DNA of 64,000 nucleotides from the NCBI GenBank assembly GCA_051294905.1, contig CM119372.1, positions 34,474,001-34,538,000 of the forward strand, in the 5' to 3' direction. A model generated the notes under the pieces. It did not search any database and was not told the origin of the DNA. It saw only the letters and a list, made by a program, of their open reading frames with translations. This DNA comes from Botryllus schlosseri. Taxonomy: Eukaryota. Position numbers and translations under genes: made by a program. Positions within the stretch are counted from its first letter, which is position 1, and the number at the start of each line of letters is the position of its first letter. This document shows positions 17,869-55,500 of the stretch, one piece after another.

Positions 17869-18430
17869 CAGAGCTGTAACCAAGTCACGAGGCTCCGAGT
17901 CACAAGTCAATCTCACTTTCATAGTTTTGACTCGTGTCAACTCGAGTCATTTTCAATTCAACATTGAGTCAAGTCTGAGTCCAAGTCACCGAGCAGAGGG
18001 TCGAGTCCGAGTCATTGTATTATGACTCGAGTCCGAGTCCAAGTCATTGTGTTGACTGCTCAGTTTCCAGTTGAAGTCTTGTTGAACCCACTTTTTATAA
18101 CTCTGTTTGGTGATATTGAATGATTTTGATTTATACTGTACTAATTTTCCTCACTCTGAGCAGTTTCTTGTCGCCTTTTCAAGTACCAGGACCAATACGA
18201 AATTCCAATACGAAGGCCACTTTACTGTTCTTCGAAATTACAATGGAATGTCGGTCTGTGCCGTCTTATAGTCTCGAGTCATATGGCTTGGTTCGAGTCA
18301 TGCACAATGACTCGAGTAAAAGTCGAGTCAATACACAGATTGTCTCTAGTCGAGTCGAGTCATTTCCCTATTTTGAAAAAATGACTCGAGTCAAGTCGAG
18401 TCTTCAGAAAATGGTGACTCGAGTCTGGTC
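17869..18430. repeat. GACTC/GAGTC-rich hAT MITE copy
   Basis: Same family as the ends of 19931-24949; dense gactcgagtc motifs; boundaries approximate and no TSD resolved. Confidence 0.65.
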
Positions 18431-20517
18431 AATCCTGCTATATATGAAAGCACCAATATCATTGTCCAAATGCATAAGCAAACTTGAGAAAAAAATCGCG
18501 AGACCAGTAAATTTATGCATACTGATTTTTCACAGCAGTTATATTAGCGATTTGTGCATGGTAAGCCGAAACACACAAATGGAAGTGTGGGGGTCTGTTG
18601 AGTCAAGCCTTCCAGAATTTGTTTGATTGGGACCAAGACTATTGTTTTTGGAGGTCTACAAAGTGTTGTTACAGCCCTGCTAGAAACAAACACTCTGTAC
18701 TGCCCATCTTATTCTTCGGTCAACTGGTGTTTGCGCAGTAAAAATGACCTTTTTTAATCATCGGCAGATTTCTCCTAAGGGGGGAATTTTGACTCAAATT
18801 TCGGCCAAGGGAGGCAGGAGATGAAAAAGGTTGGGAACCACTGTTCTAAAGCATTAATGGACAGCGTTCGTAAGTTTGCAATTGCTGTTTTTTTGTGAGA
18901 ATATGTATATTCCAGCGGTGCAAGTAAATCCCTTCATGTAGCGTGCATTGCATTATTTGCCAAGTCGGTATATGTAGGCCTACCATCAAACCCTCTCATC
19001 TGAGAACGGAACTCTATGTTTCAATGCGTGAGCGAGCAATTATAAATCACGGTAACTTTCTCATTAATGAGGCCATTATCATTTTGAGCACTCAGTGATA
19101 TGAGAAACTCTGGCGTTTCGGGGTCATTTCTGAGCAAACCAATTAACCCTTCTCCTTTCCTTCCATGGCTGGAGCCCAGCAACAATATTTGCAGAAGTCA
19201 GCTTTTTCAAGTTGATGTTTTACGCTGGTCCTCTACCCACGTTTGCCTTGCCAGCATTTCTTCTGCAAATATGTCCCCTCTGATAAGATGCACCCAGAAA
19301 ATTAGCTATGTAATGTCCGTAGAGTCGGCGAATTAGTCCAATGCTAGGCCAAAGTAGTCCTGGTGGGGAATGAAGGTTCGGAATAAATCTGAAGTGGGGA
19401 ATGAAGACGAAAAGGTTGGGAACCACTGGCCTAGACCAAGGTGGGTGGGTGTCTGATCTCAAAGACTACTCCAAGTCGTCTCGACATCTCATTTTATCGC
19501 AGTTTTGTGGTGTTTTGAAATGATGAAAATATTAATTAACTGATACTGAGTTACAAACTAAGTTTTCACTGTTTAGTTTTCCCTTCCCTTGTTCATGTTT
19601 CTGTTCAAACCATTCGCGGTGTACTACGCAGTGGGATTCTCTTAAACCAGAGTCCTGACGAATCCGACAAAACAATAACAATCTAAACTTTAGCATATAT
19701 CAAGAGACCAGAACACATCAACGATTGAGTGTTCAAAAGAAACAGAAACGGTGCGATAAGAGAGCTAAGTAACTAAATTAAGATGTTACAATCGTACCAG
19801 TAGTAATTGCGTTCATAATGAAAGATGACGCGGGCCGCAAAACAAGCGTCACTCGCCGAAACCTACACTCAAACACATGGCGTGAAATGTTAAAGACTGT
19901 TCTGCTAACTTGTTTTAGGCTCATTGGTACCAGGGTTGTAATGACTCGAGTCATGACTCGACTCGAGTCCGACTCGAGTCACGATTTTCCGATGACTCGA
20001 CTTGACTCGAGTCATTTTTTAAAAATACGGAAATGACTCGACTCGACTCGAGTCAATCTGTGTATTGACTCGACTGGGACTCGAGTCATTGCGCATGACT
20101 CGGACCAAGTCATTGACTCGAGACTCAGACGACCAAGACTGACATTTCATTGTAATTTCGAAGTAGTGTGAAGTAACCATCACACTGGGATTTCGTCTGA
20201 TTGGTACTGGTCAGAGTTGGATCAATTGTAATTTGTAATTGAGCTGAATGTAATTAATTACATTGTCACATGTAATTGTAATTGTAATTGAAGCATTTCT
20301 ATTTTGTCTAATTGTAATTGTAATTGTAATTTGATCAAAATTTTGCTCAATTACAATCTCAATTACATTTTCATGGAAACCTGACAATCACGACATAAAA
20401 TAATCATTTAATCAATCATTTATTCGTCGCACCTGTGAAAATCCGGTACGAACCAGGATGACGACGAGGGGCCTTAAGGCCTTAGTTAACAGTCACCACA
20501 TGTAATAATTAGCCTAT

Positions 20518-22125
20518 CAGGGTTGTAATGACTCGAGTCAGACTCGAGTCACGAATTTTGGGTGACTCGACTTGACTCTAGTCATTTTCTTGAAAAGGAG
20601 AAATGACTCGACTCGACTCGAGTCAATATTTGGATTGACTCGACTTGTACTCGAGTCATTACACATGACTCGACCCAAGTCATTGACTCAGCATATTTTA
20701 TATGACTTGAAGATGAAGAGATTTGCCAATCGTACTGGCTTTCGTTGCACTCGTCTGATATCAGATATGCCGACGTAAAAACAACAGACAATGGCACATA
20801 TAGTAGCAATGCATTGTACAAAATTATCCTGTGATGAAGAGGTAAATAGATCCTCCGCAATCAAAGTACTCGAGACTTTTCAATTATACAAGCAAACAAT
20901 CGAAGCAAAGTTCAATTAGAGGCAATGAAATGCCTCAGATGGTCAAGTACTTGGAAGAGACTGATAAGCTCATGTGTATAGATTTTAAGGCGATGATTTT
21001 TTGCATTCTTGGGCGACCAGAAATAATGAGTATCCAATGCTCTTCAATGTGGTTCAAAAATGCTTGTCAATTCCTATATGTAGTGCACCAGTGGAACGTG
21101 TTTCAGTAGATGTGGATTTATTCTAATGCCATGCCGCTATAACATATATGAGGATCCCCTTTCCACTATAGTATTTTTGAATTGTATCTCATCATTGATT
21201 TGATCTGCTGTCAGTGAAAACACACAATACACTCCATCCATTTGACGTTTTGTTAGGTATGTGCATTGTGCATGTGAGTAATAATGAATGGCTAATGTTG
21301 TGTGATGTTTGTACAATAGGGTTGTTCAAAAATACCTTCTTATTTATTTTACTGGGTGGCTACTTGGTAAAATTGTTATGTTACATAAAAAGAACACTGA
21401 ATCTGGCCTAATTTTAAAAAGTAGAATCAATGATATGAGAGGAGAAAATTTTATATTTGAAAATAAAGGGAGTGTTTTTGGTGAGAAATTATTTCATATA
21501 ATATAATTATATGCTAGTAGTAAGCCGACTATTTTTTCATATCCAAAATATTCCACTCTTATAAATTCGCCTTTTCTAGTTGGAGTTGGGCCAAATTTGC
21601 TATCAATCATATTTTTACACAATATAACAATATCATGAGGTGGCCGGTAAATTTCGAAAATCTCTATTTGTAGTTATTCCGAAATTCCCTCTCATATTAG
21701 TAACGCTCCGGAGCTATTTCGGGAGCTGAGCAGGAAAGCTGACCTTTTTTTAGTCAACCACCTGATAATGTGAAAGAAAAACCGTACGTCTACATAAACA
21801 TGCATCTGTTGATTCTCTATCAGCTGGTATCTAGACGTGAATTCGTTGGTTCTATATCAGATAGCTTGTAGAATGAATTCGTTGCTTCTCTATAAGCTAT
21901 AAGCTAATTCAGGATTAGAAACATGAGTTGAACATGACTTCAATACTGTGACTTGGACTCGACTCGAGTCATAACACTATGACTCGGACTTGAGCCTTAA
22001 AACGGTGACTTGGACTCGGACTTGACTCGATGATGAATTGAAAATGACTCGACTTGACTCGAGTCAAAACCACAAAAGTAAGATTGACTCGTGACTCGGA
22101 ACAATGTGACTTGGTTACAACCCTG
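20518..22125. mobile_element. Nested GACTC-rich hAT deletion derivative
   Basis: TIR cagggttgtaa/ttacaaccctg; exact TSD tagcctat; contains a transposase remnant. Confidence 0.85.
21010..21120 (+). pseudogene. hAT transposase C-terminal dimerisation-domain remnant
   Basis: Translates to WATRNNEYPMLFNVVQKCLSIPICSAPVERV, then a frameshift to FSRCG; matches the hAT W..YP.L....LSIP..SA..ER.FS motif. Confidence 0.8.
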
Positions 22126-22247
22126 TAGCCTATTCACATCGGTGTTCTATGCGTGCTGCGTTATAACTAGATAATTCAGTCACGCTAAACTGTTTGCCAT
22201 ACTTCAGTAGCAACAGAAAACTTTGTGAATTACAATATAGGCTAAAC

Positions 22248-22552
22248 CAGTGGTTCTCAAACTGGGGGCGTGCCCCCTTGGGCGGCGTGAAAGCATCTGA
22301 ACGGGACGCGACGCTCCAGTGAACTGAAATCTTTTCCGCGCTTGGCCCAATTCACCTCCGTTTCATGGTTATTGCTCGGTGTATAGTCTGAATATCGTAT
22401 TGGAAAATTCTCTCATCAACAGTCATAACCTTCCATACCATCGAACAATATGTAAGGATTTCTAACCTTCTGGTTTCATTTTGTGCCACGACGATAAGGA
22501 GGGCACGAATGTCATAAAGGGGGGCGTGTCTAAAAAAGTTAGAGAACCAGCG
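22248..22552. mobile_element. hAT MITE
   Basis: TIR cagtggttctc/gagaaccagcg; exact TSD ggctaaac. Confidence 0.8.
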
Positions 22553-23008
22553 GGCTAAACTAAATCTTAATATTTCAAAAATTGATGAACAGCAAATAAA
22601 CTCTTCTGAAACCTGTGCTGGACCAGTACCGAGGCTTGTTGCAACAATAGCAAAAAAAATTCAAGGTTCCAACCAAGGCTTCATCAAACTTGATAACGCA
22701 TTTATAGAGATGTTATCCCAATCTTACCTCCAATCTTGGCCAAATTTACTGGGGCCAGAAACTTTTCGCACCTTAATGTTCATCAAATGCTATCTAACAG
22801 TTTCCGAGCAAGTGAAAATATAAATGCGAACCAAAATATTGTAATTCTTAGTTATCAGGAGGTTCTTTCCTTTTGCATTTATTTTAATTTTACGTACCTT
22901 ATCGGTATCATCCTTATCGCTGACGCCTTACCAATTACATTTCATTATCCTGACTCAGCTCTGAGTTGCCTAATCGTTTGATTACATTTCATCAACTCTC
23001 CTGTAGCC

Positions 23009-24206
23009 CAGTGGTTCTCAACCTTTCTCACCACGCGGACCGGTAAAATTTCAAAAAATGTCTGGCGGACCGGTGAACTTTCAAAATTTAAATGAAACCA
23101 AAATGTAAGGTATGCAACCGTTTTTTCAACTACATAGTGCTAGAGAGTGACATTTAGAGGGTTTTGATCGTAATTAATTCGCTTTTGGATGACATCCGTG
23201 TGATTTTATGACAGTGAGTCTGCTGAGTCGAGGTACAATTGTCTAGTCAAAATAAACGCGCTACCACCGAGTGTCGTTAACAGTCTTTCGTGCCGAACGT
23301 AGTGGGTTTAACCGACCACCCCAACGCGAATAATATTCTTGTCTATGACAATACCGAGAGAAAAAGCGTTTTGGAGTAGAAGCAAGCACCTTGTCTTGCT
23401 ACCTTGCTCATTGCCCACTGTCACCAGAGGCAGGCTACTCTTGTAACTACTAATACCATACGTGCAGCAGAAAAAACACCTTACAGCAGCTATACCGGCC
23501 ATACGCAAATCCGCTCCAAAAAATTACATCGTGAGCCCACCCCAAAAAAACGTTGGTCTCGGGCTCCCACAGGGCGATAAGCCAAACTTCTGGGGATTTG
23601 CTCCCGGACCCGATGAGTGGGCGGATGTTTTCACCTGCACTTGTGTGCACACTCATTCTACTCAGTGCAAGCAAAGAGTTTATGTTGCTTAATCGCGACA
23701 ATAGCAAAAATTTTGGATCATTCATTACTGAATCGGTTTTCTCGCTGCCGAATTTTTGGCACAACTTTCAGAGTCCCATCTTAGCCTAATCTTTATTATA
23801 CGTTGGTTGGTCGTGGCGCGTTAATGACTGACACCGCAATGCCTATTTCTATATATATCTTGCGTATTTCTCGGAGAAGAGCACCTATAAGCGAGGCATT
23901 CAGTGACATTGAATCGCGCAATGCGCGAAAAGAAATTTAAAAGTGTTGGAAAATGTTTCAAAAAAATACGCTCTGATTTATGCTCACTTGCAAAATGATT
24001 TTGGCGTGGCACAGTGACGGTCCTGTACAAAATGAATCATTCGAAAACGAATGATCGCGAAAACTGCGCTGTTTAGCGATGAGTCAGCTCGTATCTCTAT
24101 TGTGTTTGTCGCCTTCAACATTTCATTGTGAAATTACGGTAAAAATTGTAATATGCGTGGCGGACCGGCAGGAATGTCGTCGCGGACCGGCGGTTGAGAA
24201 CCACTG
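23009..24206. mobile_element. Non-autonomous hAT (Charlie-like) element
   Basis: TIR cagtggttctcaacc/ggttgagaaccactg; TSD ctgtagcc/ctctagcc. Confidence 0.85.
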
Positions 24207-25027
24207 CTCTAGCCTATTCGAGGTTAGTCGCTCAAACCATTGGTTCGTAACAGTCGCTTGATACATTTTTCTGTGCTTGTAGTTTTCAGTACTCATGATT
24301 AGGAATAGTTCGAATACGTTCGAGTTTTTTTTTAATTAAAGGATATTCTACATATCAGGAATGAAACATGAATAGCTTGAGATTGTTGCTAATAACGTCG
24401 CTACGGTTGTAAAAGAACATCTCTTTACTGAATCAATTACCTGTTTAAAAGTAAGTGTAATTGTAATTATAATTGTAATTAATTACATGTTTAGAAGTAA
24501 TTGTAATTGTAATTTGATATTTTTAGCATTGAGTAATTGTAATTGTAATGTAATTGAAACATGCAAGGAAGTAATTGTAATTATAATTGTAATTGAATTA
24601 AAATAATGTAATTGATCCAACTCTGGTACTGGTACTTGAAAATGCGACCGGAAACTGCTAAAAGGGAGGAAAATTAGTATATTATAAATGCGAAACATTC
24701 GATATCACCAAACATAGTTATATGAAGTGAGTTGAACAAGACTTTAACTGGAAACTGAGCAGTCAACATAATGACTTGGACTCGGACTCGAGTCATGATA
24801 CCATGACTCGGACTTGACCCTCTGCTCGATGACTTTGACTCGGACTTGACTTGGTGGTGAATTGAAAATGACTCGACTTGACTCGAGTCAAAACAATAAA
24901 AGTGAAATTGACTTGTGACTCGGAGCCTTGTGACTTGGTTACAACCCTGATTGGTACACATTACTTAGTAAACTGAAGTAGTTACGGAATTGTTTTGTTT
25001 CACCACTGACAGTGAAAGTGTTATATC

Positions 25028-39193: not shown

Positions 39194-42100
39194 GTAATAC
39201 AGAAAATGTTAGAAATATATCGTTCTACCCGCTATTGTATAAATATTGAGTAATTTTCATGAAACTAACTCGAGCTGGGAATACTCAGGGCCGGTGGTAT
39301 TATAAGCGACATTATGGCTCAGCCTACATTCATATTACACACACTCATATTAGTGCACTCACTCTGCATTCAAAGTTTTGTAGCTCTCACCGTATCTGGC
39401 ATCATCTGTGCCACGGAGTCCAATATTAGGTGCCTTCTCTGCAATTAATTGGGCGCGATAGGAATTCTTTTCACGTGATAGCTGGTTCTTAATCCCTGCA
39501 ATCCCAACGCATGTAAGTCACGCATTTCGGTCACAACTGAAAAGCAATATTCACTGATGGTAATGACAATACTGGCGTTCATCCGTTTGTGGTGACTGCA
39601 TATTGCGGTTCGCCAAACCACATTTTTAAATCAGTCTGTCAGCCCACGATGCATAACCGTGCGCAATATCCTATACGAGCATGATCGTGCATGTCACGTA
39701 GGCCTACACTGATTCATAGCCGACTCGGACATGTTTACTTTCGAATCACTGCTGATATGTGAGTAGTATAGTAGATCGGTCGTGAGCGGCTATTGGCTCT
39801 TATGGGTGCGGCGGTGAGGTGCCGCGAAAACTCGTGGTGGTGATGGCACCCTTTTAGACCCCCTCTCGGCGGTGAGGTGCCATGTGTTCTTATGGATGCG
39901 GTGATGATGGTACCCTTTCGGGTATAGGCTGCGGCGGTGAGGTGCCATGAGTTCTTATGGATGCGGTGATGATGGTACCCTTTCGGGTATAGGCTGCGGC
40001 GGTGAGGTGCCGTGAAAACTCGTGGTGATGATGGTACCCTTTTGACCCCCATATGGTGATGATGTGCCTATGTGGTGATGATGGTACACTTTCAGATATA
40101 TGCACGGATTCTTGTGTCGTAGTGAACTAACGTTGTGGATATAGGCCGCGGCGATGATTCTTGTGTCGTAGTGAACTAACGTTGTGGATATAGGCCGCGG
40201 CGATGATGTGCCTGTCGTGTATTCTTACGGGATCTTTGGTGACTCGCCATGTGTTCTTATGGGTGCGGTCGCATGCGGCTATTGTGTCTTATGGCTGCGG
40301 CCGTGAATCGCCCTTTCGGTATAGGCATCTCTCGCACGTCGTACTTTCGCATGTCGTGCTTTCGCGTATAGGTTGTGTTGGTGATTCGCCATGTGTTCTT
40401 ATGGGCGTGGCGGTGAATCGTACTTTCGGATATAGGAATCCCTCGCATGGTGTTGAATATGTATCAAGTAAATAGTCACGAGTATCGCTAAACAGGAAAT
40501 TCACTAAACCGCAGTGCAATGTGCGATTTTGAAAAGGATTATCGCGACCGCGTTTTGATATTTGTGACCCAATAAATACATCCGTTTTGGAAACGCGACC
40601 TGATGTGAGGATTTCGAGCGCGCACTATCGTATCGATTATTACACTAATCCAGTCAGTACTATCACATTCAGGAGTATTCAGTATTCAGCAGTGACACAA
40701 AATGCAACCAACAAATAACCACGCTCGTAAATTAACACTTCAAAAAGTGTAAAATAGATTGCAAATCCCGCGATCGCTAACAAGATAATGTCTCGGGCAT
40801 AACCATTTTAGGGACTTGGTGTTAAAGACATACCGATCGCTCACAAGGTAATATTTCGGTAATTAGTTTGTCACAGAGCCGTCGCAGACGGTGATTCGAA
40901 AACCAACAATTTGACACTTTCTGTGGGTCGCTATATGTTTTGACACTTCGAACAGTGGCTGACTTTAGTTGCGCCATAAGAATTATGAGAATATTCAACC
41001 AATGTATCAATTTGCCAACTCGAAATGAAACTTACTACACAAACCAAGTTGATTCGTATCTGAATGTGTTAATTCGGTACAATTCTAATTATTTTGAGAA
41101 ATCTTTTCGTGATCTTTTGATTCGACCATAACCCGAATATTACTGACGCCGACTTTCAGCTACATCGAATTATTCGCACATTCCACGCCGCTGTTTTCGC
41201 ACTTATAGAATCAATACCAACTATAATTCTACAAGAATCAAGAATCACAAGTATGTGCATTATACAGTTATTGTCTTTATCAACATGAAATCAAACTCTT
41301 AACAAAAACACGCATCTTATCACTCGTCAACTCTATCATGAAAATCCTCGAGTCCTTATCATCAAAAATGTTATAGCGCGGCGTCGGAATCCATTCGTGA
41401 GATGTACTAAAGGTAAATCCAGATAATCCAAAATGAAATATTTGGACTTTGACATAGTCTGAATCGAAATATATTGACAAACATGACTACCAACTTTGAT
41501 CCAGTCACATTTCAAGATCATACTTTGAAACAATCCTTGAAACTTACAACTCTATTCACGACTGAGTTTTCCGTTTATCAAATAGAGTTTCAGTAAATAC
41601 TATCGCGATATTTTAATGTGTTACTACACACAATAGAATCAATCAATGAAATAACACCTGTTGTAAATATTTCTAACTTGACAACCACTTGTGCATACCA
41701 CGATCGACTTGTGACGCGATGAGTTAAATCGGAATATTTCAATCTATTTGTCGAAACCTTGAACAAACTATCAGGTTATTTTTTGTTGCAATTGAGTTAA
41801 CGGAAATAGTATTACGTCTCAACATTTCAACATCTTCCCATACACAAAAGAGTAAAATACAAAACACCTTGTCAAGTCAATCCGTTTGTAACTTACCCAA
41901 CCAAAACAAAAAGTATCCTTATGAAAAGTAGACAAGACTACGCAAGTAATCACTACAACCAACAAACATATCAAGTTCGGTTTTAGGCATATACCACCAA
42001 CTCGTCTTATTGGAATGTCAGCAACTCTTTACGGTCATAGTTACAACCACATTATCTAATTTACCCGACCAACTCGTCATGATCATTCCTGAAATCAACA

Positions 42101-44201
42101 CAAACATGACCACTGGCTTGAGTTAACCACAAAACAGCATCAAGTTTTAAATCCGCTTGCAGCTGACGGATTATTCGAATGCATCGATGGAGAATATTAT
42201 TGAACTCGTTGGTATTGTTACTTCAACAAATTACACCGACTGTGAAAGTTAATATCGAATGGTAAGACTTGATCACATATTTATTGATCACAGACATGAC
42301 AACATTACCGAGATTTTATAAACTAGTCATATTACTCTACACATCTATCAATATCAAAATGCGAGTCATCCAATTTTTCTACTAAAGTAACATTTCACTT
42401 TCGGATTCGGATTCGGTATAGTCATACAAATTGTATCAAATCCAACATCAAAACTAAAGGACTTTTTTAGTTCATTGAAATCAAATCATTCGTCTTCGAC
42501 TTGTGCTTTTTTAGATTACCCGCGACAATTCGTTTCGAGTGAGTTGTAACCGAAGTCAAGATATCTTTGTGTCCACAGATATGGAAGATGAATATAGCTA
42601 ACACAATCACGAATCGACGTTTCAGAGTATTTCACGGATGTAATAAACTTGTTAGTGTCGCCTATCTAAAAGTACGCACGCGTTCGATTTCCATACCGAC
42701 TGTTGCGATGTTTAGGATTCACTTACAATAACCACGGGTGAGGATTTAACATCAATGTCGTTACTGTCGGAATTCACAACAGAGAATTGAAACATTACAC
42801 AGGGCGAAAATATCTCTTTGATATCAAAGCACTACACCAAGTACACGATTAATACTCCGCTCACACTTTCTATAATACATGCTAAATGTAAAATATCACG
42901 AGGTCGCACTCTAAGACTTTGATCATTATAAAAGTAAATTGGAATATGTTTGCTAGATGCATTCAAATCAGCTAGAAATGTCTGGTGCACAACAATCGTA
43001 ATATCAGGGAAGTACTTGCTACACTATAATTCACTAAACGTGTTTTGTATTGTTGTTCATTTGTAGTATTGATTGAAATTGTTTTTAAACCCTCAAATAA
43101 TAATTCCCGACATGAAACTAAACCGCCGAAAGTCGTTACCATCACAAAGAAACAATTTACACGATGTTTGCCAAATGTATCCTATAGTTAGGTGTACTGG
43201 AATTATTTGTAAAACACACTCTGGTAAAGAAATCGAAAAGATATCCTACACCTAAATCTGTTAAAACCATTTTGCACTTTGTGTTCGTCAGTAGTATCCA
43301 TTTGAATTTTTCCATTTCCTCTCGTCAAAGTAGATGTAATCATAGTCGCTAAAGAACTTACTTGGATGTGTTTGAATTCTAGACATAGTTCTAATTTACT
43401 CGACGCAAGACCCAAGAACAATCGTAGTTTACAACCGTGCACACATATCCAAAATATCGCACACTCCGCTATTCCTAAAGTACAAACACCCGATACAAAA
43501 CATTACTTGTTGTGTTGTTGCGGCATCATCTTCACAATATCACCCTCAATACAAATGATGTTTATGTGTAACATGCTATTGATTTGAATCACACCCACCT
43601 GACGGAGGAGGATTTACTCAATCTTTACAAAATGGATATTGACCAACATCACATCATCGGATTGTATCTGTTTTGCTGGATATGAGTTATGTTAGTTTAA
43701 CAGTAAACAAATTTCACCCTCTTGGATTATGAACTCAATGCGTTAGCAGTCATTCAATATTTTGTTTGTGTCAACTAGTTACTTTGTATGTTACTCCACA
43801 ACTCTTACAAAAGTACGAAGGATATTAACATCACACTAAGTAATTAACTTTACTCGATATTCTCGCATTACGAAACTAAAGAATGGTTGGTTAGACTCTA
43901 CAAACTGTTTCGATATCACAAAACCTTTATTGTCTGAATGGGTGTTCATGTATCTTAATAATCAAATAGTTCAAAACAGAACTAGTACTAACAGAAACAT
44001 CAGAGAGTTGTTTACACAAAAGTTTGTATATGTGCACAGTATGCGAATACCATGTGTAAGTCCAGCACAATTGCGGTATCCATCCTAGTTTAGTTAACAC
44101 AAATTTATTACAACGGCGCCACGTAAACTTTCGTGAAAGAAAAGCATACTCACTCCCAGAGGGTTATGTCAATGCCATAGCAGTACCCCAACAACAAAGT
44201 A

Positions 44202-45577
44202 GGGGAGACCGGGGACAATTGTAACACTTTTCGTATTTTCCAACATTACGTGTTCTTCTCGTGGAAATTTCACTTCCAAAGTTTTATATAAAGAAGCCAA
44301 CAACTCGATAGTTGATATGAAAACTAAATTGGAACTCAATCAACAATCAATCATGGAAATTTTGGGTCGCAAAAATCGCTGCTCAAATGTTACAATCGCC
44401 CCGTACCCAGGGGCAATTGTACCACCCTTGCGGGGCAATTGTAACAGTGTTATTTATAACTAAACACAAACTGAATGAACAACGAAAACGAAAGCACAAA
44501 TTGTAATATTGCATGAAACTAAAGGAAGAGACGTTTGAACGCTTCCAGGCTACGCCCCATCGCATTTATGGCATCTGAATGCAATATCACTCTCCGTGTC
44601 TTGTTCAAGCTTAAAGTGTACAAGAGACACATTCATTCCATCATCTCCCTACACATATTCGGCCTCTTCTACCAAGGTTCTATTGTTCAGCGGGCATAAT
44701 GGGTTGGTCATTCGGTCACCTGCGAAGGTGCGAAACCGACCTGGCTAACATATCTTGGTTGAATGGGCCGATCATAGTATAGTAAAACGAGGACGCAACA
44801 TTGCGTGGCGTCAAAGCTATAATGACATTTATCTGTGATGTAGAAAATTAACATAAATTGTTCACATCAAATATCAAAATGTAAGTGGGCCATGATCAAA
44901 GTCAGAGGACAAGAATTAAGACATGACTATTGAAGTTCGACACACCAAAAGTCGATCAACATGAGAAAGGGTGGTTGAATCACGAAAATAACCGAACCGT
45001 CAGATTCACATCATCACTATTGTATGGCCTTTCCGACAGATGATCATGTTAGAATTGGTATCGCAAGGCAGTATCTGTTCTGGTGAACTTCCGGCTGTTG
45101 CAAGATTATTCTGCAGTAGATGAATGGTAATACCAACATATGAACAAAGACAATCAGAATTGACAACATATTGAAACGGGGCAAAAGTAACAGAGTGTTA
45201 CGATTGCCCCTGACACGCTCGACCATGATTAATGTCTCAGTATGGTACCTTCCCGGCGATGCAAGTCCTATTCTTTCCATCACCACGGTAGACTATAGTA
45301 ACATTGTTCCAGCTACACATATTACGTTGTAACTACTTGAGGTACTATTCGTCCAGACAAATTATTCCAGACCAGAAAAACTTTACTCAAGGGTCAAAAA
45401 TTTCGTTTTTTGCAAATTATTCCGGGGTTTCGCATCGTAGCTCAACGTAACTCCAGGTATAATAGGAGAGATAACTACTGCATGCGCACTTGAAATATCA
45501 AGCTGATTTCTCCATCCTACTAGCGGTGAGGTCGATTGTTACATTTGCCCCTAGTTACATTTGTCCCCGGTCTCCCC
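44202..45577. mobile_element. Non-autonomous TA-target DNA transposon (Tc1/mariner superfamily-like), left arm only
   Basis: TIR ggggagaccggggacaa/ttgtccccggtctcccc; TA duplicated; the empty site is in the right arm at ~49500. Confidence 0.85.
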
Positions 45578-46116
45578 TACATATGTTTTCTAGTCACGGT
45601 CCTTACATCTTTCACATAGATCAATCTACTTTGCTAACGAAAAGTGCTGAGTCATCACATGATCGCCCTCACAACAAAACAGCTAGTAGATATTATCATT
45701 CAAAACATTCCTAACCCTTTACACACCAGTGACAAATCATACAACGAATATGTTTTGTGGGTCGAATTGTTGTTCAGTATCAAGTCTACCTGTTGAAACT
45801 TACATTAAAACAACACAGTCACGATTCAATTAAAACCACGAATCTATTTTCATTTCGTCACATACAGAAAAATAAATTTTCTTTCCCCAACACATACTTG
45901 TAACCAATCGCTTTCACTAAACACACAACTTCATAAAAGTATTTACTTTCTACAACATAGACATTCCGATGTAGTCAAGAAATATTTTTATTAATCAAAA
46001 TCATCGACTTCTGTTTACGGTGTTAGTGTGTGCATGTCATACACGTGGGGCCCGTATTGAAATGGACACGACACAACTGAATGTAAGGGGGTAGTCTATC
46101 GCATAGATTTACATGT

Positions 46117-46361
46117 ATATTTTTTCTCTCGGTAACAAACCTTTTTCACTTGGAAATATATTTTTTCTCTGGGTAACAAACCTTTTTCACTTGCAAATAT
46201 ATTTTTTTCTCTGGGTAACAAACCTTTTTCACTGAGCTATAAACCATTTTCACTTGGCGGGTCGTCGTTTACCTGAGTAAAAATATCATTTTCCTTTGGA
46301 GATCCGGCGTTTACATAGTGTAACAATACATTTTCTCTTGGTCATCTAGCTTTTCCTAGAG
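46117..46361 (+). repeat. 41-bp array in the loop of element B
   Basis: Same unit as 2570-3165; it resumes briefly after the hAT insertion at 48251. Confidence 0.85.
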
Positions 46362-47069
46362 CAGGGGTTCTCAACTTCCCTTGTATAACGGGCCGCATTT
46401 TAGCAGCATAAGACGCCGCGGGCCGCAGAACATGGTATGGCCCTGTATTTGTGGGTTACCATTATATTTAGGCTACTGTAGCCTATTTACCAGTCGTATA
46501 GAGCATTTAGTACATTTTTATGCATTCTAAAGCATTAATGAACTGCGTTCGTAAGTTTGCCGCAGCTGTTTTTCTGAGAATTTATCTTCCAGCGGCGCAA
46601 GTAAATCCCTTCATTGAGTCAAGTTAAAGTCGGTATATACATCTTCAAACCCTTCCACCAGAGAACCGAACTCACTGAGTGAGCGTGCAAGTATAAAATT
46701 ACGTTAACTTGTGCGTTACAGAGCCCAATATCAATTTCAGCTCTCAATGATATGAGAAGAAGTCTGGTGTTCGGGGTCATTTCTAAGCAAACCAATCAAG
46801 CCTTCTCCTTTCCGTCCATGGATGGAGCCCTGCACCAATAGTTACAGAAGTCGGTCTCGTCAAGTTGATGTTTTTCGTTGGTCCCTTCCCCACGTTTGCC
46901 CTGCCAGCATTTACTATGCAAATCTGTCCACTCTGATAATATGCACCCGCAATGTCTGTGGAGTCGGCGGATTCGTCCAATGCTAGGCTAAAGTAGTCTG
47001 CGCGTCAACGTGTTTAAGAAGATGCGATAAAAGATCGACTGACACTGCTGTTACTCTTCTGGTCACAGC

Positions 47070-47260
47070 CAATGTTCCCTCTAATTTTTGACGAGTCTGC
47101 CCACACTCACAACTCACTGCACAGAACCTATGACAACAGTGCGTAACGACTGCAAAAGGTCTTCACTTCGGATTTTTTGTGCGCAACTTAGACTTTCTGT
47201 GCGCAGAGACCGCGTCGGCACTGCGCATTTGCACACGTGCGCAGCTTAGAGGGAACGTTG
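47070..47260. mobile_element. Short hAT MITE nested in the hAT element
   Basis: TIR caatgttccctctaa/ttagagggaacgttg; TSD gtcacagc/gtcacagt. Confidence 0.8.
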
Positions 47261-47904
47261 GTCACAGTTGAAGCAGACAACTGTAGCTTCAAAATTTGTC
47301 ACATGATGTTGTCCTTGGTGCTAAGCTCCGGAAACAGCGAATATTCGCACAGTATGTTAAAGTTTTATTGAAATCACACCTTCTCTAGCATATTTCTTGG
47401 GTTTAGCGATATTCCAAGCAATGTTGAACGATGCGTCTGTAACGTCGTCGGTAATTTTAACAATGCCTTGAAATTTGGATTGTTGGGGTTGGCACCTAGC
47501 TAGCAACGTTTTCTTTTAAGATCGAGCGATGTTTATAACTCCAGATGAAGCTGTGATATCATAGGCTTATACGCTTCGTTACGTCAACTGTTCTTCGACA
47601 AATATGACACATCGGTTTTTCATTTATATCCGAGAAACCAAGTTTCCGCCGGTTAATTTCCCGTTCCTTGTTCTTGTTACCGTCCAAACCATTCGCGGTG
47701 AGTGAAACACTCTTTAAATGTGTAGGCCTACTACGCAGCCGGATTCTCTTGAACCAGAGTCTAGCCGACTATCGATTCAAAACAATACCAATCTAAACTC
47801 GAGCATATATCAACAAACTAGAACAAATCACAGAATACGAAATCAAACGAAACAGAGACGGTGCGATAAGAGAGCGTAACGTAACAATAGCCCTCTATTT
47901 ACCT

Positions 47905-48146
47905 ATCACGACCTGACATATCGATCCGACGCATGCCATTTTTTATATCAACTGTCCTTCTATATTTTTCATTTAGTGTGCATGTGCATGCCTCTTTTTT
48001 ACATCACCTAGGCCAGGTGGATGTCTGATATCGAAGACTACCCCAAGTCGTTTGGACACCTTCCTGTTCCTATCTCTCATTGTATCGCAGTCTTGTGGTG
48101 TATTGAAATGATGAAATTATTAGCAATAAATTGAATTGAATTGAAT
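47905..48146 (+). mobile_element. LINE 3' UTR fragment (or SINE) with a (TTGAA)n tail
   Basis: Homologous to 52315-52545 and ~19425-19540; boundaries approximate. Confidence 0.6.
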
Positions 48147-50292
48147 ACCGTGCCAGTAGAAATTGCTTTCATCATGAAAGATGTCGCGGGCCGCAAAATA
48201 AGCGTCTGCGGGCCGCATGCGGCCCGCGGGCCGCGGGTTGAGAACCCCTGTCCTAGAGTAACAAAACCATTTTCATTTTGAAATCTGACAAACACACCTG
48301 ACAATTTGATATTTTTGTATATTGTTACGACGGATAGCGACAAAATATACACCAACAACAACTCCAATACATTTGTGTAATCGCATATTCACTTGTGCTG
48401 ATGCAACCCATCAAAATCATCGGTTACCCACATGCAATGTGCTGTTGTACATCGACGTTTATGTTTTTGGAAAATTGGACAATAGACTTCGATAGTTCTG
48501 TGATGTCCGGGTTCGTGCTTTGGATTTTCCAGAGTCAAAATGTCCGAATAAAACACCTCCTCGACGATGGTTGGTATGTGGATAACGGTGTTCGGAAAAC
48601 GGTTGGATTTATGTCACCCATCGCGATAACAATTCCAGGTCGAGTTTTCCTCCCGCATGTTTACTATATTGTGTCTTTATTGGTCAATGTATGTCTCGAC
48701 ATTCAGTTTGAAATCGGAAACCCTGATAAAGTAAGTAACCGGATCCGGATATCAACTCTGAATCGATAAACCAATGAACAATATTCAAAGTAAACATGTT
48801 ACACCCTGTGTATCCACGAAAAAACACCATCCAGACGTACGTCGCGCTTGTTTGCCCACACCAGTATACGCGTAAATGGAGGTGTGTGACATTGCATGCA
48901 ATGTGTTGGTATACAAACATCGGGAAGTAAGAGATGATTCGTTTTTTGAAACCGTAGCGAAGACCACATGTAAATCTATGCGATAGACTACCCCCTTACA
49001 TTCAGTTGTGTCGTGTCCATTTTAATACGGGCCCCACGTGTATGACATGCACACACTAACACCGTAAACAGAAGTCGATGATTTTGATTAATAAAAATAT
49101 TTCTTGACTACATCGGAATGTCTATGTTGTAGAAAGTAAATACTTTTATGAAGTTGTGTGTTTAGTGAAAGCGATTGGTTACAAGTATGTGTTGGGGAAA
49201 GAAAATTTATTTTTCTGTATGTGACGAAATGAAAATAGATTCGTGGTTTTAATTGAATTTTGACTGTGTTGTTTTAATGTAAGTTTCAACAGGTAGACTT
49301 GATACTGAACAACAATTCGACCCACAAAACATATTCGTTGTATGATTTGTCACTGGTGTGTAAAGGGTTAGGAATGTTTTGAATGATAATATCTACTAGC
49401 TGTTTTGTTGTGAGGGCAATCATGTGATGACTCAGCACTTTTCGTTAGCAAAGTAGATTGATCTATGTGAAAGATGTAAGGACCGTGACTAGAAAACATA
49501 TGTACTTTGTTGTTGGGGTACTGCTATGGCATTGACATAACCCTCTGGGAGTGAGTATGCTTTTCTTTCACGAAAGTTTACGTGGCGCCGTTGTAATAAA
49601 TTTGTGTTAACTAAACTAGGATGGATACCGCAATTGTGCTGGACTTACACATGGTATTCGCATACTGTGCACATATACAAACTTTTGTGTAAACAACTCT
49701 CTGATGTTTCTGTTAGTACTAGTTCTGTTTTGAACTATTTGATTATTAAGATACATGAACACCCATTCAGACAATAAAGGTTTTGTGATATCGAAACAGT
49801 TTGTAGAGTCTAACCAACCATTCTTTAGTTTCGTAATGCGAGAATATCGAGTAAAGTTAATTACTTAGTGTGATGTTAATATCCTTCGTACTTTTGTAAG
49901 AGTTGTGGAGTAACATACAAAGTAACTAGTTGACACAAACAAAATATTGAATGACTGCTAACGCATTGAGTTCATAATCCAAGAGGGTGAAATTTGTTTA
50001 CTGTTAAACTAACATAACTCATATCCAGCAAAACAGATACAATCCGATGATGTGATGTTGGTCAATATCCATTTTGTAAAGATTGAGTAAATCCTCCTCC
50101 GTCAGGTGGGTGTGATTCAAATCAATAGCATGTTACACATAAACATCATTTGTATTGAGGGTGATATTGTGAAGATGATGCCGCAACAACACAACAAGTA
50201 ATGTTTTGTATCGGGTGTTTGTACTTTAGGAATAGCGGAGTGTGCGATATTTTGGATATATACAATTGAATAGTATATTCATATTAAAATGA

Positions 50293-50326
50293 ACCCGAAT
50301 ATTTTCGGCTGACACTCGTCAGGGGT
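50293..50326 (-). ncRNA. Minimal type I hammerhead ribozyme
   Basis: Reverse complement of the motif at 50608-50641. Confidence 0.65.
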
Positions 50327-50607
50327 AATCGTCAGCAACTAGTAGAGAATTCGAAAGAACAGAGACGAGACGACAGATTTCGCATACTCGGAAAGGGTCG
50401 CTCACACTTTCATTTGTGCGCCTTGGAGTCGACTTTTATCAAAATACACCAGCCAAGGCTGTGTCAACAAAAAGAGTTCGTGTATCATCTAAAAATAGTA
50501 CATTGAACGCTCTCGTATTCGACATTTCGTGCTGGTGACGTCATATTTTGTGTTACGATTGTTGATATACGCTGTTCTTTCGAATTCTCTACTAGTTGCT
50601 GACGATT

Positions 50608-50641
50608 ACCCCTGACGAGTGTCAGCCGAAAATATTCGGGT
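50608..50641 (+). ncRNA. Minimal type I hammerhead ribozyme
   Basis: accc CTGACGA gtgtcagcc GAA aatatt C gggt: CUGANGA/GAAA/UH core, 4-bp stem I, 1-bp stem II, self-complementary stem III AATATT. Confidence 0.7.
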
Positions 50642-51872
50642 TCATTTTAATATGAATATACTATTCAATTGTATATTGAAGTTATGTACCTCAAAGAAGC
50701 TGTTCAAATATTTTGGATATGTGTGCACGGTTGTAAACTACGGTTGTTCTTGGGTCTTGCGTCGAGTAAATTAGAACTATGTCTAGAATTCAAACACATC
50801 CAAGTAAGTTCTTTAGCGACTATGATTACATCTACTTTGACGAGAGGAAATGGAAAAATTCAAATGGATACTACTGACGAACACAAAGTGCAAAATGGTT
50901 TTAACAGATTTAGGTGTAGGATATCTTTTCGATTTCTTTACCAGAGTGTGTTATACAAATAATTCCAGTACACCTAACTATAGGTTACATTTGGCAAACA
51001 TCGTGTAAATTGTTTCTTTGTGATGGTAACGACTTTCGGCGGTTTAGTTTCATGTCGGGAATTATTATTTGAGGGTTTAAAAACAATTTCAATCAATACT
51101 ACAAATGAACAACAATACAAAACACGTTTAGTGAATTATAGTGTAGCAAGTACTTCCTTGATATTACGATTGTTGTGCACCAGACATTTCTAGCTGATTT
51201 GAATGCATCTAGCAAACATATTCCAATTTACTTTTATAATGATCAAAGTCTTAGAGTGCGACCTCGTGATATTTTACATTTAGCATGTATTATAGAAAGT
51301 GTGAGCGGAGTATTAATCGTGTACTTGGTGTAGTGCTTTGATATCAAAGAGATATTTTCGCCCTGTGTAATGTTTCAATTCTCTGTTGTGAATTCCGACA
51401 GTAACGACATTGATGTTAAATCCTCACCCGTGGTTATTGTAAGTGAATCCTAAACATCGCAACAGTCGGTATGGAAATCGAACGCGTGCGTACTTTTAGA
51501 TAGGCGACACTAACAAGTTTATTACATCCGTGAAATACTCTGAAACGTCGATTCGTGATTGTGTTAGCTATATTCATCTTCCATATCTGTGGACACAAAG
51601 ATATCTTGACTTCGGTTACAACTCACTCGAAACGAATTGTCGCGGGTAATCTAAAAAAGCACAAGTCGAAGACGAATGATTTGATTTCAATGAACTAAAA
51701 AAGTCCTTTAGTTTTGATGTTGGATTTGATACAATTTGTATGACTATACCGAATCCGAATCCGAAAGTGAAATGTTACTTTAGTAGAAAAATTGGATGAC
51801 TCGCATTTTGATATTGATAGATGTGTAGAGTAATATGACTAGTTTATAAAATCTCGGTAATGTTGTCATGTC

Positions 51873-52560
51873 ATGTTGTCATGCACTCAAGCCACTGCAG
51901 AAACTACAGCATAAAGTGCTCCGATTCATATCTAGGGCCCCAAAGGGGCCTGGCTGCCCATCCAATAAGTCGCTGCTGAAGAGATTCGGCGTCCTAAACA
52001 TAGAAGATATGCGGAAACTAGAAATCGCCAAGTTTATGTATCAGTTTCACTGCGGTCGTTGCCCCGAATATTTCAATGACGTCTTTACCTCTGAATCAAA
52101 AGCGCACAAGTACAACACACGCGCGTCCACGTCGTCCAAATATCATATGATAGACCGAAAAGATCATCGCTCCATCAAATATGCCGGACCTGATGTGTGG
52201 AACAGTATCCCGCCGGCCATCCGACAGTCGACGAGCATGTCCACATTCAAGTCGAAATACAAGCAATTACTACTAAATAAATACAGTCCATCCTCAAGAT
52301 TACCGGACCACGACTGACCTATCGATCTCGCTTCCCATGACATGCCGCCCTATTTCTTTTCGCTTTCTTTTTCTATACTGTATTCTTTACTTTCATTCAG
52401 TGTGCATGCCTCCTCTTTACTACGCCTAGGCCAAGGTGGGTGTCCGATTCCATTGACAAATCCAAGTCGCTTCGACATCTTCCTGTCTATTCATTGTATC
52501 GCATTTTTTGTGGTGTATTGAACTGATAAAATTGCTAATAAACCAAGGATGATGATGATG
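51873..52560 (+). mobile_element. 5'-truncated CR1/L2-group LINE (ORF2 C-terminus plus 3' UTR, (GAT)n tail), right arm only
   Basis: Peptide LQKLQHKVLRFI...EIAKFMY...HKYNTR...SIKYAGPDVWNSIP...FKSKYK; short duplication atgtc; empty site in the left arm at ~42295. Confidence 0.85.
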
Positions 52561-55500
52561 ATGTCTGTGATCAATAAATATGTGATCAAGTCTTACCATT
52601 CGATATTAACTTTCACAGTCGGTGTAATTTGTTGAAGTAACAATACCGACGAGTTCAATAATATTCTCCATCGATGCATTCGAATAATTCGTCAGCTGCA
52701 AGCGGATTTAAAACTTGATGCTGTTTTGTGGTTAACTCAAGCCAGTGGTCATGTTTGTGTTGATTTCAGGAATGATCATGACGAGTTGGTCGGGTAAATT
52801 AGATAATGTGGTTGTAACTATGACCGTAAAGAGTTGCTGACATTCCAATAAGACGAGTTGGTGGTATATGCCTAAAACCGAACTTGATATGTTTGTTGGT
52901 AGTAGTGATTACTTGCGTAGTCTTGTCTACTTTTCATAAGGATACTTTTTGTTTTGGTTGGGTAAGTTACAAACGGATTGACTTGACAAGGTTTTTTGTA
53001 TTTTACTCTTTTGTGTATGGGAAGATGTTGAAATGTTGAGACGTAATACTATTTCCGTTAACTCAATTGCAACAAAAAATAACCTGATAGTTTGTTCAAG
53101 GTTTCGACAAATAGATTGAAATATTTCGATTTAACTCATCGCGTCACAAGTCGATCGTGGTATGCACAAGTGGTTGTCAAGTTAGAAATATTTACAACAG
53201 GTGTTATTTCATTGATTGATTCTATTGTGTGTAGTAACACATTAAAATATCGCGATAGTATTTACTGAAGCTCTATTTGATAAACGGAAAACTCAGTCGT
53301 GAATAGAGTTGTAAGTTTCAAGGATTGTTTCAAAGTATGATCTTGAAATGTGACTGGATCAAAGTTGGTAGTCATGTTTGTCAATATATTTCGATTCAGA
53401 CTATGTCAAAGTCCAAATATTTCATTTTGGATTATCTGGATTTACCTTTAGTACATCTCACGAATGGATTCCGACGCCGCGCTATAACATTTTTGATGAT
53501 AAGGACTCGAGGATTTTCATGATAGAGTTGACGAGTGATAAGATGCGTGTTTTTGTTAAGAGTTTGATTTCATGTTGATAAAGACAATAACTGTATAATG
53601 CACATACTTGTGATTCTTGATTCTTGTAGAATTATAGTTGTTATTGATTCTATAAGTGCGAAAACAGCGGCGTGGAATGTGCGAATAATTCGATGTAGCT
53701 GAAAGTCGGCGTCAGTAATATTCGGGTTATGGTCGAATCAAAAGATCACGAAAAGATTTCTCAAAATAATTAGAATTGTACCGAATTAACACATTCAGAT
53801 ACGAATCAACTTGGTTTGTGTAGTAAGTTTCATTTCGAGTTGGCAAATTGATACATTGGTTGAATATTCTCATAATTCTTATGGCGCAACTAAAGTCAGC
53901 CACTGTTCGAAGTGTCAAAACATATAGCGACCCACAGAAAGTGTCAAATTGTTGGTTTTCGAATCACCGTCTGCGACGGCTCTGTGACAAACTAATTACC
54001 GAAATATTACCTTGTGAGCGATCGGTATGTCTTTAACACCAAGTCCCTAAAATGGTTATGCCCGAGACATTATCTTGTTAGCGATCGCGGGATTTGCAAT
54101 CTATTTTACACTTTTTGAAGTGTTAATTTACGAGCGTGGTTATTTGTTGGTTGCATTTTGTGTCACTGCTGAATACTGAATACTCCTGAATGTGATAGTA
54201 CTGACTGGATTAGTGTAATAATCGATACGATAGTGCGCGCTCGAAATCCTCACATCAGGTCGCGTTTCCAAAACGGATGTATTTATTGGGTCACAAATAT
54301 CAAAACGCGGTCGCGATAATCCTTTTCAAAATCGCACATTGCACTGCGGTTTAGTGAATTTCCTCTTTAGCGATACTCGTGACTATTTACTTGATACATA
54401 TTCAACACCATGCGAGGGATTCCTATATCCGAAAGTACGATTCACCGCCACGCCCATAAGAACACATGGCGAATCACCAACACAACCTATACGCGAAAGC
54501 ACGACATGCGAAAGTACGACGTGCGAGAGATGCCTATACCGAAAGGGCGATTCACGGCCGCACCCATAAGACACAATAGCCGCATGCGACCGCACCCATA
54601 AGAACACATGGCGAGTCACCAAAGATCCCGTAAGAATACACGACAGGCACATCATCGCCGCGGCCTATATCCACAACGTTAGTTCACTACGACACAAGAA
54701 TCATCGCCGCGGCCTATATCCACAACGTTAGTTCACTACGACACAAGAATCCGTGCATATATCTGAAAGTGTACCATCATCACCACATAGGCACATCATC
54801 ACCATATGGGGGTCAAAAGGGTACCATCATCACCACGAGTTTTCACGGCACCTCACCGCCGCAGCCTATACCCGAAAGGGTACCATCATCACCGCATCCA
54901 TAAGAACACATGGCACCTCACCGCCGAGAGGGGGGTCAAAAAGGGTACCATCACCACCACGAGTTTTCAGGCACCTCACCGCCGCAGCCTATACCCGAAA
55001 GGGTACCATCATCACCGCATCCATAAGAACACATGGCACCTCACCGCCGAGAGGGGGTCTAAAAGGGTGCCATCACCACCACGAGTTTTCGCGGCACCTC
55101 ACCGCCGCACCCATAAGAGCCAATAGCCGCTCACGACCGATCTACTATACTACTTATGTGAGCATATATTTTTGTCTGAATTAGTGGAATGGTATTCACA
55201 AGCAGACATGGGGTGATTACTCCATGAATGTAATCGATTGCGATTACGATTATTTATAAATGACGCGATTACGATTACGATTACAGCAAAATCAGGAAGT
55301 AGTGATTACGATTACGATTACATTGGAAAAGTAATCACGATTACATATATTTTGCATCTTAGAAACTATATTGGAAGACAATATATGGATTTCGCTGAAA
55401 AGGCCTAATAAGAAAACAAACTTCCTTTACAAAAGATGCGTCATTAACTTGTCACCTCTTATGGTACCCATTCCACATTTTTATGGAGGACGATTTGTTG

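Follow-up and report, generated by a model that had tools for sequence, protein, structure and literature searches.

A Gene-Less Foldback Family With Polinton-Type Ends in the Genome of Botryllus schlosseri

Introduction

Autonomous Polinton/Maverick elements, reportedly described by Kapitonov and Jurka in 2006, are the closest system with which the element analyzed in this study can be compared. This element occupies positions 39762 to 55154 of a 64,000-nucleotide stretch of Botryllus schlosseri DNA (Eukaryota; assembly GCA_051294905.1, contig CM119372.1, positions 34,474,001 to 34,538,000 of the forward strand), which we call the window, and consists largely of one inverted repeat. Judging from sequence comparisons, it is very probably a damaged member of a gene-less foldback family that lives as non-autonomous satellites of the Polintons resident in the same genome. 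A canonical member of this family reads, from left to right, as a Polinton end, an arm of 6.2–6.9 kb, a conserved 0.9-kb loop, the inverted arm and a second Polinton end.

By definition, autonomous Polintons encode a protein-primed polymerase and a retrovirus-like integrase (PMC5499653). Vertebrate Mavericks are flanked by 6-bp target duplications and carry (AG)3 or (AGT)2 end motifs, in the latter case arranged as (AGT)2...(ACT)2; intact copies measure 12.7–24.6 kb and have terminal repeats of 46–1,447 bp with a mean of 402 (PMC8097293). Short repeats at the termini have been cited as favouring protein priming (PMC4196379), and in the model of Polinton movement an excised single strand pairs its terminal repeats into a racket, after which protein-primed synthesis follows (PMC4196379; 10.64898/2026.07.28.741278). 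The hairpins described here have in common with Polintons the (AGT)2...(ACT)2 motif, the 6-bp duplication and the terminal inverted repeats, and with the coding Polintons of the same genome also the outer 0.2–1.9 kb. They differ in that they are gene-less, that only 0.9 kb of the element lies outside their inverted repeat of 6.2–6.9 kb, and that their arm interior and centre are unrelated to those same coding Polintons.

Three further systems combine long inverted repeats with mobility or helper dependence. Butterfly polintons have terminal inverted repeats of ~2 kb that hold the hexon and adenain genes (10.1101/2025.02.07.637071). In these elements the terminal repeat has grown inward and one-ended sequence has been doubled in inverted form, as in the helper-end segments of our hairpins; yet they retain coding sequence and their repeat makes up a small share of the total, whereas in the hairpins it takes nearly all of the element, from which every gene is gone. 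Snap-back and copy-back defective viral genomes, as defined in PMC13506859, resemble the hairpins in near-complete self-complementarity, the lack of coding capacity, two functional ends, helper dependence and the recopying of one end in reverse. Such genomes arise anew in infections and are not inherited, whereas the hairpin family appears old and of single origin, has a conserved turn-around and exists as hundreds of germ-line-integrated copies that are mostly not recognisably helper-derived. The Foldback and Galileo elements of Drosophila likewise possess long, repetitive and mostly non-coding inverted arms that are more alike within a copy than between copies (PMC3573991), but they belong to another transposase superfamily, whereas the hairpins have the ends of a virus-like element that is protein-primed and bears an integrase. 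A literature search, with Repbase and Dfam outside its scope, yielded no account of a Polinton derivative that is palindromic over nearly its full length. Among viruses, defective adenovirus genomes with large inverted duplications exist.

Results and Discussion

Anatomy of the Window Element

The left end of the element, at 39762, is AGTAGTATAGTAGATCGG and the right end, at 55154, is its exact reverse complement; the perfect termini and the exact 6-bp duplication (tatgtg) announced by the original prediction, which had been made from the letters of the window, are confirmed (Table 1). The near-identical arms of ~5 kb that it described were recovered in a self-comparison as five reverse-complement blocks, which sum to ~5.0 kb of paired sequence with ~20 differences (~99.6% identity). 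Its loop of ~0.95 kb, by contrast, is not present in this copy: the arms are separated by 2849 nt (46117–48965) made up of inner left arm and a hAT-like insertion, and a 957-nt loop is found instead in a second copy of the family within the window (3908–4864).

Comparison with canonical copies of the family detected no loop homology anywhere inside 39762–55154 and locates the damage. The 41-bp array corresponds to reference arm positions ~5839–6102 of a canonical copy, and the innermost remnant of the left arm (48251–48931) is 86.8–88.1% identical to two canonical copies in left-arm orientation. Lost at the junction are ~0.1 kb of the left arm, the whole ~0.9-kb family loop and ~1.6 kb of the inner right arm. 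Later insertions into the arms had also been proposed, and three of them proved real, each in one arm only; in total, four one-sided insertions are listed in Table 1. By their features, the one at 44202–45577 would be a Tc1/mariner-like MITE (a miniature inverted-repeat transposable element) and the one at 46362–48250 is probably hAT-like. With the insertions removed and the deleted part restored by reference coordinates, simple arithmetic gives a length of ~13.7 kb. The predicted absence of a recognisable pPolB, integrase, ATPase, protease or capsid gene agrees with our finding that no stop-to-stop open reading frame (ORF) in 39762–55154 exceeds 155 amino acids (aa). The window copy is an old, decayed family member that has lost its loop.

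Table 1. Features of the window element and of the other family members in the window (positions refer to the window).
Feature	Position	Strand	Remarks
Left target-site duplication, tatgtg	39756-39761		identical 6 nt directly 3' of right end
Left terminus, AGTAGT motif and subterminal 65/123-bp repeats	39762-40015	+	part in common with autonomous Polintons
Left arm, outer and middle	39762-44201	+	pairs with 49503-55154, 99.47-100% reverse-complement identity
Secondary insertion, left arm only	44202-45577		1376 bp; inverted ends GGGGAGACCGGGG..., TA duplication; right arm unbroken at 49503/49504
Left arm, further stretch	45578-46116	+	pairs with 48966-49504, 99.26%, 539 nt
41-bp tandem array, inner left arm	46116-46361	+	period 41, 2.9 copies; right-arm partner gone
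Secondary insertion, left arm only	46362-48250		1889 bp; inverted ends CAGGGGTTCTCAAC... (CAGGGG...), 8-bp duplication TCCTAGAG
Innermost left-arm remnant	48251-48931	+	unpaired; reference arm positions ~6095-6776
Deletion junction	48929-48966		reference coordinate leaps from ~6776 (+) to ~5299 (-)
Right arm, inner surviving part	48966-50259	-	
Secondary insertion, right arm only	50260-50707		448 bp; 13-nt direct repeat ATATTTTGGATAT at flanks
Right arm, middle part	50708-51876	-	
Secondary insertion, right arm only	51877-52560		684 bp; short ~8-nt duplication, (GAT)n tail
Right arm, outer part and right terminus (...ACTACT)	52561-55154	-	
Right target-site duplication, tatgtg	55155-55160		
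Arm block	39762-39950 vs 54967-55154	reverse complement	99.47%, 189 nt
Arm block	39932-42297 vs 52561-54926	reverse complement	99.58%, 2366 nt
Arm block	42290-43457 vs 50708-51876	reverse complement	99.57%, 1169 nt
Arm block	43445-44201 vs 49503-50259	reverse complement	100%, 757 nt
Arm block	45578-46116 vs 48966-49504	reverse complement	99.26%, 539 nt
Second copy, more diverged	2435-11313		left arm cut to inner ~1.5 kb; right arm complete to terminus 11290-11313
Third-copy fragment	29-2057	-	arm positions ~2876 down to 665; adjoins second copy, opposite sense

A Family of Several Hundred Hairpins

The window element is a member of a gene-less foldback family of several hundred copies in which the hairpin anatomy is the norm. 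Genome counts were made on a 495-Mb assembly of 219 contigs. The terminal 200 nt of the window copy have 89 genomic matches, mostly as +/- pairs 12.6–26 kb apart, and the end motif AGTAGT-N6-GATCGSTSGYGA occurs 786 times in forward and 769 times in reverse orientation, against 0/0 for a reversed-pattern control. The first 100 listed termini include 34 adjacent +/- pairs with identical 24-mers, 23 of which have an own length of 13.1–14.8 kb once nested copies are subtracted. With ~780 end pairs of ~14 kb each, coding copies included, the family may make up as much as ~2% of the genome.

Seventeen end pairs were examined, which together with the window copy gives 18 elements, 16 of the hairpin type and two coding. 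Ten pairs lying 13.4–14.7 kb apart, picked by similarity to the end of the window copy, serve as canonical copies, and all ten are hairpins. Their arms of 6238–6889 nt are 99.74–99.97% identical (1–18 differing positions) and account for 12.5–13.8 kb of the 13.4–14.7 kb, so that reverse complementarity extends over nearly the whole element. The loop measures 882–955 nt in nine of them and 341 nt in the tenth, and none of the ten contains an ORF above 214 aa. A further five pairs are hairpins that carry insertions, have one arm only in part, contain an N gap or possess older arms (98.5–98.7% identity). All 18 elements start with AGTAGT, some of them with AGTAGTAGT. A tabulation of target duplications, proposed along with the original prediction, returned a perfect 6-bp duplication for 16 of the 18, one with 5/6 matching positions and one element, on C12, without any. 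A 490-nt loop probe was matched at 95–100% identity by all 40 scored hits, taken from 923 first-look candidates. Together with the 786/769 end motifs and the ten hairpins among ten canonical pairs, this bears out the earlier view of a propagating family as opposed to an accident.

Perfect palindromes are a known class of assembly artefact, generated when a chimeric read or a missed adapter folds the assembly back on itself, and one 20-kb copy (C2_3.7M; L021-L023, C2:3706414-3726574) does contain 100 N in a row, together with internal inverted duplications of 2.8–3.0 kb that are 100% identical, probably because the assembler struggled with a palindrome at this spot. For the family as a whole, the probability of such an artefact is nevertheless negligible. 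The sequences on the two sides of the window copy are unique and unlike each other but share a direct 6-bp duplication, and the four insertions and the central deletion of this copy are all one-sided. Own duplications were found in 15 of the 16 hairpin-type copies, spread over eight contigs, nested copies exist, and short contigs assembled from independent runs with other organism labels carry the centre with 0–2 differences. Nesting is seen at C1:16768420-16810257, where hairpins lie three deep, and at C1:32992130-33018942, each hairpin having its own matching 24-nt ends.

Nine of the ten canonical copies have loops that are homologous from end to end and agree in their boundaries (82–97% identity). 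Because the loop and the arm–loop junctions are common to these copies, the fold-back junction would have arisen once and then been propagated, which points to one old origin of the hairpin architecture, not to a recent accident. An alignment of nine half-elements of 7.1–7.8 kb takes 11,124 columns and contains two conserved blocks, the first ~240 nt (mean pairwise identity 0.92) and the innermost ~600 nt of the arm together with the loop (0.88–0.97). Over the 5 kb between these blocks, occupancy is 0.3–0.8 and identity 0.5–0.85. Despite this turnover of the arm interior, total length remains steady at 13.4–14.7 kb in the ten sequenced copies.

Coding Polintons of the Same Genome

The search for an autonomous element with the same termini, likewise proposed at the outset, was successful. 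Two gene-bearing elements possess hairpin-type ends and 6-bp duplications (L030+L031, 15.8 kb; L024-L026, 20.9 kb), and their genes include those for a protein-primed polymerase, an integrase and a double-jelly-roll capsid protein; we refer to them as helpers. Relative to the shorter one, the longer helper (C7:2049047-2070058) has a 4.65-kb insertion at ~5920–10570, and extra copies of the subterminal repeat stretch its terminal repeat to ~1.15 kb.

Eight helper ORFs were scanned with hmmscan, which flagged only the integrase and weak ATPase matches. The integrase is of the rve-chromo type (359 aa; rve 4e-16, Chromo 4e-9), while a 217-aa ORF gave AAA_14 and Pox_A32 below cut-off and RNA_helicase at 22.1 bits against a cut-off of 21.5. 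The 1163-aa ORF has 28 homologues (best E 7e-194, 33–34% identity), 12 of which contain PF03175, and in a language-model atlas it reached a score of 0.95, with 21 matches in PF03175 clusters. On the strength of these domain-bearing homologues we consider it a protein-primed polymerase. Classical polymerase motif patterns, written as regular expressions, matched it poorly, and a PDB sequence search returned nothing. The genome contains at least 40 matches to this polymerase, from 368 candidates, and 36 of these 40 are stop-free. The 432-aa ORF falls in the widespread 'F54H12.2-like' animal family (134 matches). Its predicted fold (predicted local distance difference test, pLDDT, 88; predicted template-modelling score, pTM, 0.87) has double-jelly-roll capsid proteins as best structural matches, namely those of SGIV (1e-16), PBCV-1, Sputnik (TMq 0.65) and mavirus (3.5e-12), and we take the ORF to encode a double-jelly-roll capsid protein.

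What Hairpins and Helpers Share

The comparison with these two coding elements reveals that sharing is confined to the outer part of the hairpins. The first 200–400 nt are 84–97% identical in all copies, and in some copies the shared stretch reaches 1.1–1.9 kb, with an overall identity of 84–98%; in the window copy, the left terminus (39762–40015) is 85–94% identical to the first ~200–330 nt of both helpers. The variable hexamers that follow AGTAGT are the same ones in hairpins and coding elements. The hairpins have the 6-bp duplication, the AGT end motif and ends shared with a polymerase- and integrase-bearing element, and the earlier assignment to Polinton/Maverick-type ends, based on the (AGT)2...(ACT)2 motif and the 6-bp duplications, is upheld. 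The centre, taken as the loop with 700 nt of inner arm on either side, has no blastn match in the two helpers, and a tblastn search of the eight helper ORFs against the hairpins gave a match in a single copy, C180, to a 210-aa ORF.

Four hairpins carry, in each of their arms, a 472-nt segment that the helpers have at the right end only (94–98% identity), and each arm of C180 holds a 770-nt segment, including the 210-aa ORF, that the helpers have at the left end only (96%). One-ended helper sequence is thus found in both arms of five of the 16 hairpin-type copies, at identities well above those among hairpin arm interiors. On one and the same hairpin backbone, both arms have thus received a copy of a single helper end on at least two occasions. 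Such doubling is what the recopying of one end predicts. The original prediction of a snap-back Polinton genome is borne out for the outer 0.2–1.9 kb, to which the one-ended segments lend support; most of the arm interior and the whole centre show no similarity to the two helpers. With the loop and its junctions common to nine of the ten canonical copies, a de novo turn-round of the polymerase is not what the individual copies record.

It is highly improbable that an unrelated foldback transposon family came by Polinton-like ends through chance. Foldback and Galileo elements, too, typically have long inverted arms that are non-coding and contain tandem repeats (PMC3573991), yet the hairpin termini match coding Polintons over 200–1100 nt at 84–98%, not merely over 6 nt, and the variable hexamers after AGTAGT are common to both. 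The duplications point the same way, as their 6 bp fit Polintons and not FB. Target duplications measure 9 bp in FB and 7–8 bp in the P superfamily; those of the hairpins are 6 bp long and adjoin the ends of coding Polintons. We class the family as a probable non-autonomous Polinton derivative with foldback architecture. As the hairpins are gene-less and combine helper ends with the same 6-bp duplications, they are most likely inserted in trans by the helper integrase; young copies with 1–18 arm differences point in this direction as well.

Arms That Differ Between Copies but Not Within Them

Between copies, arms are 78–93% identical over 44–95% of their length, and copies thus differ from one another by 7–22%, as opposed to the within-copy identity of 99.74–99.97%. 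The hexamer following AGTAGT and the number of AGT units, (AGT)2 or (AGT)3, vary among copies but are equal at both ends of each. Since the two arms of a copy are ~100 times less different than the lineages are, mere faithful copying of both arms does not fit. After insertion the arms do drift: the window copy has reached 0.4% in addition to its four one-sided insertions, other copies 1.3–1.5%, and copy C2_33.77M has 2.9 kb inserted in one arm only. The arms seem to behave like the long terminal repeats (LTRs) of retroelements, identical at birth and drifting later, a pattern that points to a step of the life cycle in which one arm is made from the other.

We regard it as an evenly balanced proposition that this equalising step is coupled to replication. 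Origins for the protein-primed polymerase of the helper are most likely provided by the AGT-repeat ends. In each replication cycle, the displaced or excised single strand would fold into a full-length hairpin, to which the racket of the Polinton model would correspond in these elements, and one arm would be copied or corrected from the other across the hairpin stem. A precedent for such arm repair is the adenovirus panhandle, which keeps the terminal repeats identical. Alternatively, the nascent strand might turn back on itself by a copy-back route, as in snap-back defective genomes. Once integrated, the arms would drift and gather insertions independently, the state in which the window copy is met. 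The arm interior could be a stuffer under length constraint, perhaps that of filling a capsid; selection for a capsid-fitting size is suggested by the narrow length range near the 15.8 kb of the helper.

More far-reaching, and to be taken as a tentative and rather doubtful option, is that the family represents the genome of a true satellite virus of a polintovirus, replicated from its AGT-repeat ends by the helper polymerase, with the second arm regenerated in every cycle, the length of ~14 kb held by capsid filling and the conserved 2-kb centre providing a cis signal or a small loop ORF. If so, the near-perfect arms would be the first natural read-out of a single-stranded racket or panhandle intermediate, and the family a heritable, germ-line-integrated counterpart of defective interfering genomes. 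Polinton replication and movement have so far been deduced almost wholly from gene content, and a gene-less family displays which sequence could suffice in cis: ~240 nt per end and perhaps the conserved 2-kb centre. The LTR-like arm pattern offers a dating tool as well as a prediction, that of a single-stranded fold-back intermediate, which sequencing can address. The size match to the helper bears on the question whether animal Polintons still form particles. Long perfect palindromes are moreover fragile sites and matter for assembly quality and genome stability in this species.

Several points weigh against satellites of Polintons whose arms are equalised during replication. Most of the arm interior and the whole centre are unlike the helper, which leaves a Polinton-genome origin unproven for ~80% of the element. 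The helper polymerase itself was not flagged by hmmscan, and a PF03175 profile search of the whole genome gave no match, a result that is uninformative given that the control genomes gave none either. The narrow length range could reflect shared ancestry instead of a packaging limit, and mobilisation, replication and packaging are all deduced from sequence. Arm-to-arm differences are spread fairly evenly, with no clear gradient, and single out no mechanism. The flank of the C12 element described below represents either arm-to-arm copying in the chromosome or an assembly error. Finally, polishing with ambiguously mapped reads could inflate arm identity, though it cannot create the contrast with the 7–22% between copies.

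Several of these points can be turned in favour of another explanation, in which the same family, moved by the helper integrase through plain cut-and-paste or copy movement, has its arms kept alike by gene conversion or fold-back repair in the chromosome. Arm-to-arm conversion in large palindromes is an established process, and the even spread of differences along the arm is compatible with it. The C12 element (L027-L029 with L038/L039; C12:6425376-6454412), 26 kb long and without a target duplication, has 625-nt flanks that are reverse-complementary to each other (98.6%), a pattern suggestive of in-place copying over the axis of symmetry. We nonetheless consider conversion in place rather unlikely as the source of arm identity. 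The window copy keeps its four insertions and ~20 substitutions one-sided, C2_33.77M keeps a 2.9-kb insertion in one arm, and older-looking copies stand at 1.3–1.5% arm divergence, so arms do diverge in place. The helper-end segments found in both arms (94–98%) would further require an exchange with a helper molecule in addition to copying from arm to arm. As to the C12 element, it could have formed by inverted duplication past the element end, by insertion at the centre of a long-inverted-repeat element, or through an assembly error; its duplicated flank resembles the 2.9-kb insertion of another copy.

Coding Content, Transcripts and Occurrence in Other Runs

The hairpins encode no recognisable polymerase, integrase, ATPase or capsid gene in ORF, Pfam and tblastn scans, and thus lack the own protein-primed polymerase and retrovirus-like integrase of autonomous Polintons. 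The 37 ORFs of at least 60 aa in a canonical half-element yielded no credible Pfam match (the sole match, 0.0067, is below cut-off), and a search of a canonical copy against Rfam returned nothing. An ORF of ~93–105 codons in the loop is open in eight of nine canonical copies (L009:6821-7141, minus strand, for example). In the second copy of the window it is frameshifted (4541–4824), although recognisable in this diverged copy at 64% amino-acid identity. The loop ORF has no Pfam match and no similarity to the helper, and in the protein atlas it gave only unnamed bacterial clusters. There is no clear signal of selection on this ORF: its pooled ratio of non-synonymous to synonymous differences (pN/pS) of 0.44 lies within the spread of control frames and places (0.23–1.31).

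In one single-cell RNA run, of which ~3% was read, 165 reads were placed. Depth peaks at 56 on the inner arm (L009 6164–6207) and does not exceed 7 on the loop, and 45% of the placed reads continue into unlike sequence; this constitutes weak, family-level evidence for some transcription of the hairpins. Such transcripts bring up a further role, in which hairpins would be kept or tolerated because read-through yields long double-stranded RNA and, from it, small-RNA silencing of Polinton ends. The comparison is with Mu killer, a single locus made by rearrangement, which resembles the hairpins in being a transposon end duplicated in inverted form, with the potential to yield hairpin RNA; the hairpins differ in that they form a family that transposes and makes target duplications of its own. 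A perfect long inverted repeat whose outer 0.2–1.9 kb matches the helper ends would suit this purpose, as would RNA reads on the inner arm. However, apart from the 210-aa ORF of one copy only non-coding helper ends are matched, RNA depth is low with nearly half of the reads leaving the element, and a family with young, target-duplicated copies in the hundreds resembles a parasite, not a host locus. We judge silencing to be an improbable reason for the existence of the hairpins, although such a role could coexist with that of satellites.

The family centre was found in runs of four organism codes and one metagenome, none of which is recorded as RNA. Short contigs from runs of organisms B and D match it with 0–2 differences. 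Going by these matches, the family, or one very closely related to it, also exists outside the individual and label that were assembled. The centre is near-unchanged in runs X7, X12, X14 and X15 (58–61% of sampled words), whose labels are three other organism codes and a metagenome; this could be due to close relatives or to transfer between species.

Other Family Members and Repeats in the Window

Three family members lie in the 64 kb, as had been predicted: the element at 39762–55154, the second copy (~2435–11313) and the fragment of a third (29–2057). The end motif has three matches in the window at up to two mismatches, compared with none in 100 shuffles. The census would lead one to expect ~1 family member per 600 kb. 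A different repeat occupies 17867–24951; its inverted arms measure 328 nt (88%), further inverted repeats lie in its interior, and parts of it (18844–19295, 19622–19773) are 78–81% identical to the hAT-like insertion in the hairpin (46525–47885).

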